Source: a virus (lineage: Duplodnaviria > Heunggongvirae > Uroviricota > Caudoviricetes). From it: a stretch of 64,000 bases of DNA. The stretch lies in IMG/VR virus record IMGVR_UViG_2718217715_000005; one strand, written 5' to 3'. This document shows, in pieces, positions 1-3,000 of the stretch. A program made the position numbers. Each line of letters opens with the position of its first letter. Position 1 is the first letter of the stretch.

Positions 1-3000
1 GTATGTCCGGTGCGGGAGGATTTCTCGGCAGCATTGGTGACTGGCTGGGCGGAGCGGTGGCCAATGCAAAAGGCGGCGTGTATACCTCGGCAAACCTGAG
101 CGCGTACAGCAACAGCATTGTGGACACGCCCACGTACTTTGCGTTTGCAAAAGGGGCCGGGCTGATGGGGGAAGCCGGACCTGAAGCTATTATGCCCCTG
201 ACCCGGGCGGCGGATGGCTCGCTGGGCGTACGCGCCGTGGGCAGTATGAACGGCAGTGCTGGTCTGGTGTATTCCCCGGTCTACCACATCGCCATTCAGA
301 ATGACGGGGCTAACGGACAGATAGGGCCGGAGGCGGCAGGCAGTCTTGTGCAGCTGATTGACCAGCGGGTGCAGGCGGTGATGCTGTCCATGCGACGTGA
401 CGGAGGAATGCTGAGTGGCTGAGATAAAAACGCTGCATCTGGTCCCGCGTGAAGGGATGCAGGTGAGTGAGAAGCCGTCGGTGGTGAGGGTGCGGTTTGG
501 TGACGGTTATGAACAGCGCCGCCCCACAGGGCTGAATCCTCAACTGAAGACGTTTCAGGCGGTGTTCCGGGTGACGGATGAGTCAACCCGGCGCTGGCTG
601 GATGAATTTTTATCCTGGCATGGTGGTTACCGTGCCTTTTTGTGGCGACCGCCGAAACATAACCGGACGGTGAGGGTGGTGTGCCGGGAGTGGAGCGTCA
701 CGGATAACGCCCGGTACAGTGATTTCAGCTGTACGATTGAGCAGGTGGTGAACTGATGCAGGACATTCATGAAGAAAGTCTGAACGAGTCGGTTAAATCA
801 GAGCAGTCACCGCGGGTGGTGCTCTGGGAAATTGACCTGACGGTGCAGGGCGGTGAGCGGTATTTTTTCTGCAATGAGCTGAATGAAAAAGGGGAGGCGG
901 TTACCTGGCAGGGGCGGGAATATCAGGCATACCCGATTGACGGCAGCGGTTTTGAGATGAACGGGAAGGGCAGCAGTGCCCGCCCGTCACTGACGGTGTC
1001 CAATCTGTTCGGTCTGGTCACCGGAATGGCGGAGGACCTGCAGAGCCTGGTGGGGGCCACGGTGGTCCGCCGCCGGGTGTATGCCCGTTTTCTGGATGCG
1101 GTGAATTTTGTGGCGGGCAATCCGGAAGCGGACCCGGAGCAGGAGCTGAGAGACCGCTGGGTGGTGGAGCAGATGTCAGAGCTGACGGCCATGACAGCCT
1201 CGTTTGTGCTGGCAACACCGACGGAGACGGACGGAGCGCTGTTTCCCGGTCGCATTATGCTGGCGAATACCTGTATGTGGACCTACCGCTCTGATGAGTG
1301 TGGTTACACGGGCGGGGCAGTGGCGGATGAGTTCGACAACCCCACCACGGATATCCGTAAGGACAGATGCAGCAAGTGCATGCGCGGGTGTGAGATGCGC
1401 AGCATGGTGGCTAATTTTGGCGGTTTCCTTTCCATTAATAAACTTTCGCAGTAAATCCCGGTTTATGACACAGACTGAATCAGCGATTCTGGCGCATGCC
1501 CGGCGGTGTGCGCCTGCGGAGTCGTGCGGCTTCGTGATAAGCACGCCGGAGGGGGAGTGGTATATCCCTTGTGTGAATATTTCTGCAGAGCCGGAGGCGT
1601 ATTTTCGTATCGCACCGGAAGACTGGCTGCGGGCAGAGATGCAGGGGGAGATTGTGGCACTGGTCCACAGTCATCCCGGTGGGCTGCCCTGGCTGAGCGA
1701 GGCTGACCGGCGGCTGCAGATAAAAAGCGCACTGCCCTGGTGGCTGGTCTGCCGGGGTGACATTCACAAATTCCGCTGTGTGCCACATCTGACAGGACGG
1801 CGCTTTGAGCACGGGGTGACGGACTGTTACACGCTGTTCCGGGATGCTTATCATCTGGCGGGGACTGAAATGCCGGATTTTCATCGCGAGGATGGCTGGT
1901 GGCGCAACGGTCAGAACCTTTACCTGGACAATATGGCGGTCACCGGCTTTTACCGGGTGCCCCTGTCCTCTGCACAGGCGGGCGATATTCTGCTGTGCTG
2001 CTTTGGTGCTTCGGTACCGAACCATGCCGCCATTTACTGCGGCAACGGTGAGCTGCTTCACCATCTGCCTGAACAACTGAGTAAACGGGAGAGGTATTCC
2101 GAAAAATGGCAACGACGAACGCATTCTGTCTGGCGTCACCGCCACTGGCACGCATCTGCCTTCACGGGGATTTACAACGATTTGGCCGCCGCCTCAGCCT
2201 GTATGTGAACACGGCAGCGGAAGCCATCCGGGCGCTGTCGTTACAGGTGCCGGGCTTTCGCCGTCAGATGAACGAAGGCTGGTACCAGATACGTATTGCC
2301 GGTTATGACACGGCACCGGAGGCGGTGTACGCCCGTCTTCACGAACAGCTGGGTGAGGGAACGGTCATCCATATTGTGCCGCGACTGGCCGGGGCCGGAA
2401 AGGGTGGACTGCAGATTGTGCTGGGGGCGGCAGCCATCGTGGGCTCTTTCTTCACTGCCGGGGCATCAATGGCGTTATGGGGTTCAGCCCTGGCAGCCGG
2501 TGGTTTTTCTGCCACCACGATGCTGTTTTCACTTGGAGCCAGCATGATTCTGGGCGGTGTGGCCCAGATGCTGGCCCCGAAGGCAAAAACACCGGATTAC
2601 CGCGCAACGGATAACGGCAGACAGAACACGTACTTTTCCTCGCTGGATAACATGATTGCCCAGGGGAACCCGATGCCGGTGCCTTACGGGGAAATGCTGG
2701 TTGGCTCCCGCCGTATATCCCAGGACATCAGCACCCGTGATGAAGGCGGGGGCGGAACGGTCGTGGTTGTCGGGCGACAGGGATAAAACATAAAAAAATC
2801 CCGCAGTGATCGCGGAGCTGCGGGGACAGACAAATGAAGATCAATGTTAAGGAGTTGTTTTTGTTACTCGGGCAAAAAAACACTAACGCAGCGAAATTAT
2901 AAGCGCCACAGTCAGTGTGTGAAAATGTGAAGATATTCAGAATTTTTATGCCATTACCGGTTTTAACCAACAGGATTATCGGTGGGCATGAAAGAAAACC

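Follow-up and report, generated by a model that had tools for sequence, protein, structure and literature searches.

Localisation of a mosaic junction at the M/L gene boundary of two tandem lambda-like prophages in Escherichia coli O157:H7

Two tandem prophages and their tail genes

In this study, we analysed the boundary between the tail genes M and L in two lambda-like prophages located on one stretch of DNA of 64,000 nt (IMG/VR record IMGVR_UViG_2718217715_000005; this whole stretch is referred to as the window in the following). Positions 1–25000 of the window match the chromosome of Escherichia coli O157:H7 strain 2159 (NZ_CP017438.1, from 2541477, + strand) at 100%, and 195 complete genomes contain at least 80% of this part. 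The annotation of the record shows the two prophages as a tandem pair with ynfA on one side and a truncated ydfJ on the other. Prophage A starts outside the window and contributes only its tail end (position 1 to ~8885), while prophage B extends from ~14300 to ~62700. A is flanked on its left by ynfA to ynfH and dmsD, and B on its right by the truncated ydfJ, ydfI, ydfZ and rspR. The same genes flank the prophages Sp11 (2158311–2204088) and Sp12 (2204089–2255027) annotated at this locus in strain Sakai, where the pair is likewise integrated in tandem at ydfJ. In most 200-nt windows, A and Sakai Sp12 as well as B and Sakai Sp11 show 99–100% identity, i.e. they are nearly identical outside of recombinant patches. 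Judged by position, gene content and sequence identity, A is the ortholog of Sp12 and B the ortholog of Sp11. Sp11 has been described with lambda-type morphogenesis genes and a P-type helicase loader, whereas the head region of Sp12 is different and its loader is of the DnaC type, and the integrases of both are disrupted (PMC2669165); these descriptions fit B and A, as do chromosomal position, tandem order and gene content. Strain 2159 departs from Sakai patchwise, with 265 differing columns from M to stf in A and 301 from L to stf in B. Unlike Sakai Sp12, A carries a deletion after stf, and unlike Sakai Sp11, B features an IS629 insertion sequence in its portal gene and a tail that is homogenised with an Sp14-like prophage.

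All tail genes discussed here are encoded on the + strand. In A, the 3′ end of H (3–422, annotated and cut at the window start) belongs to a tape-measure gene of a non-lambda type and overlaps at 415–422 with M (415–756), which starts with GTG and encodes a gpM-family distal tail protein of 113 aa (PF05939, E = 4.8e-29, residues 6–112). In B, the lambda-type tape-measure gene H (49040–51685; PF06791 and PF09718) precedes M (51682–52011), which encodes a gpM of 109 aa (PF05939, E = 1.2e-37). The two versions of M are called A-type and B-type (lambda type) in the following. Both match PF05939 (Phage_min_tail, the lambda gpM family) over the full length, and both sit between a tape-measure gene and L with a translational overlap, as befits members of this family. 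In A, the M stop codon TGA (754–756) and the L start codon ATG (756–758) have one A in common, resulting in the stop/start overlap TGATG, and B is arranged alike. The coordinates 415–756 and the L starts at 756 and 52011, taken from an earlier sequence-only reading of the window, proved correct on the basis of open reading frames and Pfam matches.

L of A (756–1454) encodes the tail-tip hub protein (PF05100, E = 2.4e-91), and L of B (52011–52709) likewise matches PF05100, the gpL family. According to the annotation, L is followed in A by K (1465–2208, a C40 peptidase), I (2205–2786), J (3129–6607, the central tail fibre), lom (6675–7274), the N-terminal part of stf (7339–8553) and a truncated gene for the stf C-terminal domain (8555–8755), and in B by K (52715–53458), I (53455–54033), J (54274–57753), lom (57820–58419), stf (58484–59797) and the gene for the stf C-terminal domain (59799–60068). 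J of A is a frameshifted pseudogene; J is frameshifted or split in Sakai (ECs_2233–2235) and in strain UTME-4 as well, so the defect is old. The truncation at the end of stf in A stems from a deletion of ~0.9 kb at 8555–9348, which removed part of the gene for the stf C-terminal domain together with the nleG-family genes found downstream of it in both Sakai and UTME-4.

The identity break ahead of L

Upon comparison of A and B, protein identity rises sharply from H and M to the genes downstream. H of A and H of B share 27% aa identity, with the C-terminal motif RDGGMLSG as their only common motif, and the two M proteins share 45%, with conserved GDGY and FLW motifs. M of A is equally distant from lambda gpM (45%), to which M of B shows 79% aa identity. 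In comparison, identity between A and B amounts to 96% for L, 92% for K, 96% for I, 95% for Lom and 97% for the N-terminal part of Stf. At the nucleotide level, BLASTN of A against B detected no similarity left of A737/B51992 except for a 96-nt match of 73% inside M. A maximum chi-square scan located the change at A740/B51995, where identity rises from 47.2% on the left-hand side to 93.0% on the right-hand side; chi-square was 367, compared to 17.3 for the highest of 300 permutations. From base-by-base alignment, the identical run opens with AGCAGGTGGTGAACTGATG, and the break thus falls between positions −17 and −16 relative to the L ATG, i.e. 16 nt ahead of the L start codon. The identical junction sequence of 22 nt, AGCAGGTGGTGAACTGATGCAG, at which high similarity begins, is located at 740–761 in A and at 51995–52016 in B. 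It consists of the final five M codons (EQVVN), the TGA stop overlapping the L ATG and the first two codons of L.

To the left of the junction, synonymous divergence (dS) between A and B reaches 1.23 in M and 2.2 in the H C-terminus; to the right, it drops to 0.26 (L), 0.25 (K), 0.20 (I) and 0.12 (lom). This 5- to 8-fold jump across the junction indicates that the contrast reflects history and not protein constraint. The change is abrupt, statistically supported and completed within a few bases at a gene boundary, as expected for a mosaic junction. The sequence-only reading had described H and M as diverged between the two prophages, which is borne out by ~47% nucleotide identity and dS values of 1.23–2.2. 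It had further suspected a recombination junction at or just before L, which is supported and can now be placed between −17 and −16. Divergence across the module is not uniform in the identity plot, so that the observation of a break holds.

A scan of the window revealed no true Chi site (GCTGGTGG) near either of the two M/L junctions, the nearest one being located at 1895 in K of A. The sequence GCAGGTGG at the junction deviates from Chi by one mismatch, and Chi was dropped as an explanation. The window contains 14 Chi sites compared to 3.1 expected from shuffled sequences, 12 of them being + strand sites, chiefly in the early, late-regulatory and lysis regions of B. Structured RNA in or near the tail genes was searched for as well, and none reached the Rfam gathering threshold.

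To the right of the junction, A and B had been described as near-identical from L through stf. While they are indeed much closer here than in H and M, this wording is too strong, since overall identity from L to stf, with gaps counted, is 86.5%, and L itself shows 92.8%. The BLAST blocks right of the junction display 91.2%, 88.2% and 89.9% identity, and identity within L–stf is strongly heterogeneous (chi-square 2239 at 81 degrees of freedom): 12 of 82 windows of 100 nt are at 100%, and 19 fall below 80%. Two tracts are perfect, A3777–4441 in J (665 nt) and A7609–8162 in the lom–stf region (554 nt). The C-terminal third of J (A5050–6530) shows 57–75% identity to B, and in A this part (~5050–6530) is also unlike Sakai Sp12, at 74–95%. 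The stf genes differ by an indel of roughly 99 nt.

The spacer between I and J is largely unalignable, with 343 nt in A (2787–3128) and 241 nt in B (54034–54273), compared to ~60 nt in lambda. Terminator-like hairpins lie in this spacer at 2996–3031 in A and at 54204–54232 in B, and B additionally contains a small open reading frame there (54079–54198, 39 aa, MKINVMELFF...), which is shortened to 22 aa in A.

Whole-prophage BLAST showed that the early and lysis regions are common to A and B up to B37045, including for example 4.8 kb at 98%, and it showed no similarity between A and B across the head and tail-shaft region from B37045 to A737/B51992. The left edge of this non-homologous cassette in B is marked by a ylcI/ynfO-like gene (36911–37045, + strand; BLAST and annotation), the last segment shared with A before the terminase. 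The virion genes of A encode an HNH endonuclease, TerS, TerL, a large capsid gene product, a portal protein from a 2.6-kb gene, an HK97-gp10-type protein, gp17, the major tail subunit, chaperones, a tape measure of 1026 aa and M, while those of B follow the lambda order Nu1-A-W-B-C-D-E-FI-FII-Z-U-V-G-T-H-M. The two cassettes, each ~14–15 kb long, are therefore different in kind, HK97-like and non-lambda in A and lambda-type in B. Both are flanked by shared DNA, namely the late-regulatory and lysis region on the left and the tail-tip genes L-K-I-J-lom-stf on the right. With shared flanks and nothing in common between them, the break at M/L constitutes the right-hand edge of a cassette difference of 14–15 kb.

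The same junction with the same identity values is found in Sakai and UTME-4. Beyond these strains, the A-type arrangement of H-M-L is present in 98 phage records and the B-type or lambda-type arrangement in 145, so that both flanking configurations exist independently in other phages. The A-type records comprise Stx2c-, Stx1a- and Stx2a-converting phages and PPompW prophages, all at ≥95% among the 40 matches listed. From IMG/VR, we sampled 80 loci that encode L at ≥95% aa identity and were chosen for their closeness to L of A. Together with the two copies of the window, these loci yielded 24 A-type and 50 B-type M genes. In every one of the 24 × 50 pairwise comparisons, the break lies between −17 and −16 relative to the L start codon, and all 74 A-type and B-type loci carry the same 22 nt at −16 to +6. 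L sequences differ on average by 5.96% within M types and by 5.91% between them (permutation p = 0.57), and one L allele of 699 nt was found with both types of M. L alleles thus appear to be unlinked to M type in this sample.

The boundary also recurs outside of these closely related loci. Prophage B shows a uniform nucleotide identity of ~77% to lambda throughout H-M-L-K-I, while similarity between A and lambda starts abruptly at A737. M of phage phi467 shares 66% aa identity with M of A, and phi467 and A are uniformly ~74% identical across H-M-L; L of phi467 is 91% identical to lambda L at the nucleotide level. Phage vB_EcoS-683R6 (683R6) likewise carries a lambda-type L (about 91% nucleotide identity to lambda L) next to an M of the A family, and in both phages similarity to lambda begins at −20/−22 from the L ATG. 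There are consequently two L families, O157-type and lambda-type, which are 74–76% apart, and two deep M families at 45% aa identity. All four combinations of M family and L family exist, which implies at least two independent exchanges at the M/L boundary. Taking dS, the family combinations and the unlinked alleles together, the two sides of the junction have different histories, as is typical of mosaic genomes.

Within the junction sequence itself, 19 nt are shared with lambda, while phi467 and 683R6 share only CTGATGCAGGA. As to an import of the M C-terminus EQVVN from the lambda type by the crossover, the observations diverge: M ends in EEVTH in phi467 and in DEVVI in 683R6, but still in EQVVR in an A-type M that a porin gene separates from L. 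This gene, encoding a porin of 387 aa similar to OmpC/NmpC with its own intrinsic terminator, sits exactly between A-type M and the L ATG in four IMG/VR loci (L057, L059, L064 at 1627–2790, and L072), and it looks like a cargo gene ("moron") inside the tail operon. In these loci, sequence sharing sets in only with the L ATG, and nothing upstream is in common. In one further locus (L076), M and L do not overlap but are separated by a short spacer bearing a Shine-Dalgarno sequence. At least four left-hand contexts are hence joined 0–22 nt from the L start codon, namely the A-type M, the lambda-type M, an M of the A family next to a lambda-type L, and the porin gene together with its terminator.

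Exchange among co-resident prophages

Compared to Sakai and UTME-4, both A and B of strain 2159 carry strain-specific patches. In A, a patch at 1753–2150 in K–I differs from Sakai Sp12. In B, 72 of the 83 sites in K–I at which the prophage departs from Sakai Sp11 show the Sp12 allele, as do all 16 such sites in the N-terminal part of J (corresponding to A 3750–4500). In the lom–stf region, Sp11 and Sp12 are 100% identical to each other in Sakai as well as in UTME-4, while B of strain 2159 differs at ~170 sites.

The same chromosome harbours an Sp14-like tccP/espJ prophage, which was found via a 100% match in the sister strain 4276 and then at the same coordinates in strain 2159 (NZ_CP017438.1, 2079232–2090194, i.e. 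2.079–2.090 Mb). It is located ~510 kb from B and has the same protein accessions as B for M, L, K, I and Stf. Sequence comparison revealed a tract of 9297 nt in B (50762–60058, + strand) that is 99.8% identical to the Sp14-like prophage and crosses the M/L boundary. Only 17 columns differ over its length, and the run from 50762 to 55998 is perfect; the corresponding Sakai prophages, Sp11 and Sp14, are separated by 255 differing columns in this stretch. Tracts that are identical between paralogous prophages of one strain and different between the orthologs of another are the hallmark of gene conversion. From these comparisons, the main and most recent partner of B is the Sp14-like prophage and not A, and the likely source of the deviating alleles of B is thus located outside the window. 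Since the tract starts in H and crosses M/L, the boundary limits only exchange between A-type and B-type partners, which is expected if homology is the limiting factor.

To the left of this tract, the T/H 5′ region of B (48688–49365) shows only 52–74% identity to Sakai Sp11, with flanks at 100%, and constitutes a replaced patch; the T gene of B is annotated as incomplete in strain 2159. As a long direct or inverted repeat, the 9.3-kb pair formed by B and the Sp14-like prophage could seed chromosomal rearrangements.

The sequence-only reading had attributed the junction to the co-resident prophages having exchanged or homogenised their distal tail genes. Of this proposal, exchange as such stands, in the form of patchy gene conversion across the O157 prophage pool, while its role as the origin of the junction does not. 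That A and B created the junction in this genome or its recent ancestors would agree with their adjacency, with the perfect tracts of 665 and 554 nt they have in common and with the Sp12 allele at 16/16 distinguishing sites in the J N-terminal part of B. However, L, K and I are still apart at dS of 0.20–0.26, which speaks against recent homogenisation of these genes between A and B, and the identity of 99.8% in L–stf links B to the Sp14-like prophage and not to A. Moreover, the junction occupies the same nucleotide throughout the 24 × 50 comparisons, recurs at the same base in all 74 loci, in Sakai and in UTME-4, and is accompanied by 98 and 145 phage records holding the two configurations. 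An origin of the junction by exchange between A and B is thereby largely refuted, and we regard it as improbable.

Module boundary, mechanism and further features

We interpret the break as an old boundary between modules of lambdoid phages that is present population-wide and on which recent and patchy gene conversion is layered, and consider this reading very probable. Homologous recombination (by RecA or phage RecET/Red-type systems) anywhere in the shared flanks would move whole cassettes or tip alleles between phages. If A-type and B-type partners meet, exchange would stop at the junction because homology ends there in the leftward direction. The 100%-identical tracts and the strain-specific patches are explained by recent gene conversion among the several co-resident O157 prophages. 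Phage recombinases of the Red/Rad52-like type are reported to drive homeologous recombination (PMC2327257, PMC3945230).

The position of the boundary can be related to the architecture of the tail. In the lambda virion, the distal tail protein gpM is a hexamer placed between the gpV tube and the trimeric gpL/gpJ ring; its beta-sandwich stacks on the tube, its E-loops touch the ring, and the C-terminal helix of gpH rests on the gpI plug (PMC10721106). The genetic boundary would thus coincide with the interface between the six-fold tube and the three-fold hub. It may persist because it matches this physical interface: the M ring, stacked on the tube, would travel together with V and H, and M and H would need to be compatible with the tube and chaperones they belong to, and L, K, I and J, the components of the three-fold hub, with each other. 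The motifs conserved in H and M of both prophages are consistent with a docking of both types on the same hub.

A further suggestion concerns the 22 nt themselves. In view of the at least four left-hand contexts joined close to the L ATG, the overlap of the M stop with the L start could, together with these 22 nt, act as a preferred joining site that channels both cassette exchange and the insertion of cargo at the tube/hub interface. We consider this rather improbable. The conservation of the 22 nt is explainable by the ribosome-binding site of L and the stop/start overlap.

Several points weigh against the proposal of an old module boundary with later gene conversion. The rationale of an M/L interface is carried over from lambda in the case of A-type M. 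Many of the 80 sampled loci possibly stem from related genomes of Shiga toxin-producing E. coli, which could blur linkage between L and M types. The 22 nt might promote recombination, or might be kept only because the C-terminus of M, its overlap with the L start and the ribosome-binding site of L are located in them. The exchanges are judged from a comparison of three strains. Finally, polishing of PacBio assemblies could in principle make very long identical repeats more uniform than they really are; the independent assembly of sister strain 4276 contains the same Sp14-like alleles, which argues against such a polishing artefact.

Two other accounts of the break can be set against an old module boundary. 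Without any recombination, H and M could have evolved faster, or L–stf could have been more constrained, resulting in uneven divergence from a common ancestor. H and M of A and B are indeed still homologous, with PF05939 in both M proteins at 45% aa identity, and tape-measure genes are known to be variable. However, the jump is present at synonymous sites (dS of 1.2–2.2 compared to 0.12–0.26) and takes place within a few bases, B compared to lambda and A compared to phi467 are each uniformly diverged across the same boundary, four combinations of M and L families exist, and whole sets of head and shaft genes are different in kind, which leaves uneven rates scarcely conceivable. An assembly artefact, in which collapsed or cross-polished repeats mimic a chimeric junction or identical tracts, would be in line with a long-read assembly of strain 2159 that contains several annotated frameshifts and with prophage tails being multi-kb repeats, but it is hardly credible given that the junction is reproduced in the Sakai reference, UTME-4 and 74 IMG/VR loci and that the Sp14-like alleles matching B recur in the independent assembly of strain 4276.

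The tail module resembles that of phage lambda in the order H-M-L-K-I-J-lom-stf, in the TGATG overlap of M and L and in the gpM and gpL families, and in B this likeness is continuous from H through I at ~77% nucleotide identity. Unlike in lambda, H and M of A come from another lineage (45% aa identity to gpM), the O157 family of L alleles is only 74–77% identical to lambda L, and the I–J spacer comprises 240–340 nt instead of about 60 nt. Mosaic, modular genomes whose junctions fall at gene boundaries are characteristic of lambdoid phages, as formulated in the modular genome hypothesis and reportedly described in work of Hendrix and Juhala. Our junction shares with this modular mosaicism the abrupt change at a gene boundary, the shared flanks around a cassette and the incongruent histories of adjacent genes. 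It is therefore a well-localised case of an already known phenomenon and involves no new mechanism or element.

The lambdoid prophages of O157 are reported to have almost the same morphogenetic genes, variously combined, and to recombine (PMC2669165). The segment exchange seen here, over 9.3 kb between Sp11 and Sp14 and in patches between Sp11 and Sp12, is of the same kind as that known from this prophage pool, e.g. from hybrid Stx1/Stx2 phages. Here, the exchange is deduced from sequence comparison between strains. Structural genes are reported to be co-transferred as modules among lambdoid phages (PMC9836094). The co-transfer of holin and Lom described in the same study may have a trivial reason, namely that both genes flank the swappable head and shaft cassette. 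The lysis cassette (holin, a YdfR-like protein, lysozyme and an antirepressor) is, like the distal tail genes, common to prophages with different virion cassettes.

The start of the tail-tip cassette in O157 prophages is hereby placed at base resolution, and this cassette circulates freely between lambda-type and HK97-like backbones. Among Sp11, Sp12 and Sp14, homogenisation affects multi-kb stretches of the tail and differs from strain to strain. This affects assembly, typing and alignment of O157 genomes, in which recombining tail repeats can confound phylogenies from single-nucleotide polymorphisms and seed rearrangements. For the prediction of host range in hybrid phages, it should be noted that the receptor-binding third of J stays divergent.

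Additional mobile elements and repeats are located outside of the tail modules. B contains an inverted pair of IS629/IS1203 elements with 99.85% identity, of which the copy at 14911–16220 (− strand) lies between an integrase remnant and recE, while the copy at 41409–42718 (+ strand) splits the portal gene. Each copy carries an ALIL frameshift pseudoknot (Rfam RF01497). Between nleG7 and the boundary of the two prophages, an IS256-family transposase gene (10148–13806) is split by a complete ISEc8 of the IS66 family, comprising tnpA, tnpB and the transposase gene. A direct repeat of 401 nt with 99.75% identity and a dinI-like gene inside is present at the right end of each prophage (13841–14241 and 62328–62728); the two copies bracket all of B, so that recombination between them would delete B. 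Above the Rfam gathering score, B additionally encodes the small RNA DicF (18007–18058, − strand), the antitoxin RNA sok (25268–25442, + strand), which adjoins a hok-family gene, and STnc100 (30759–30931, + strand).

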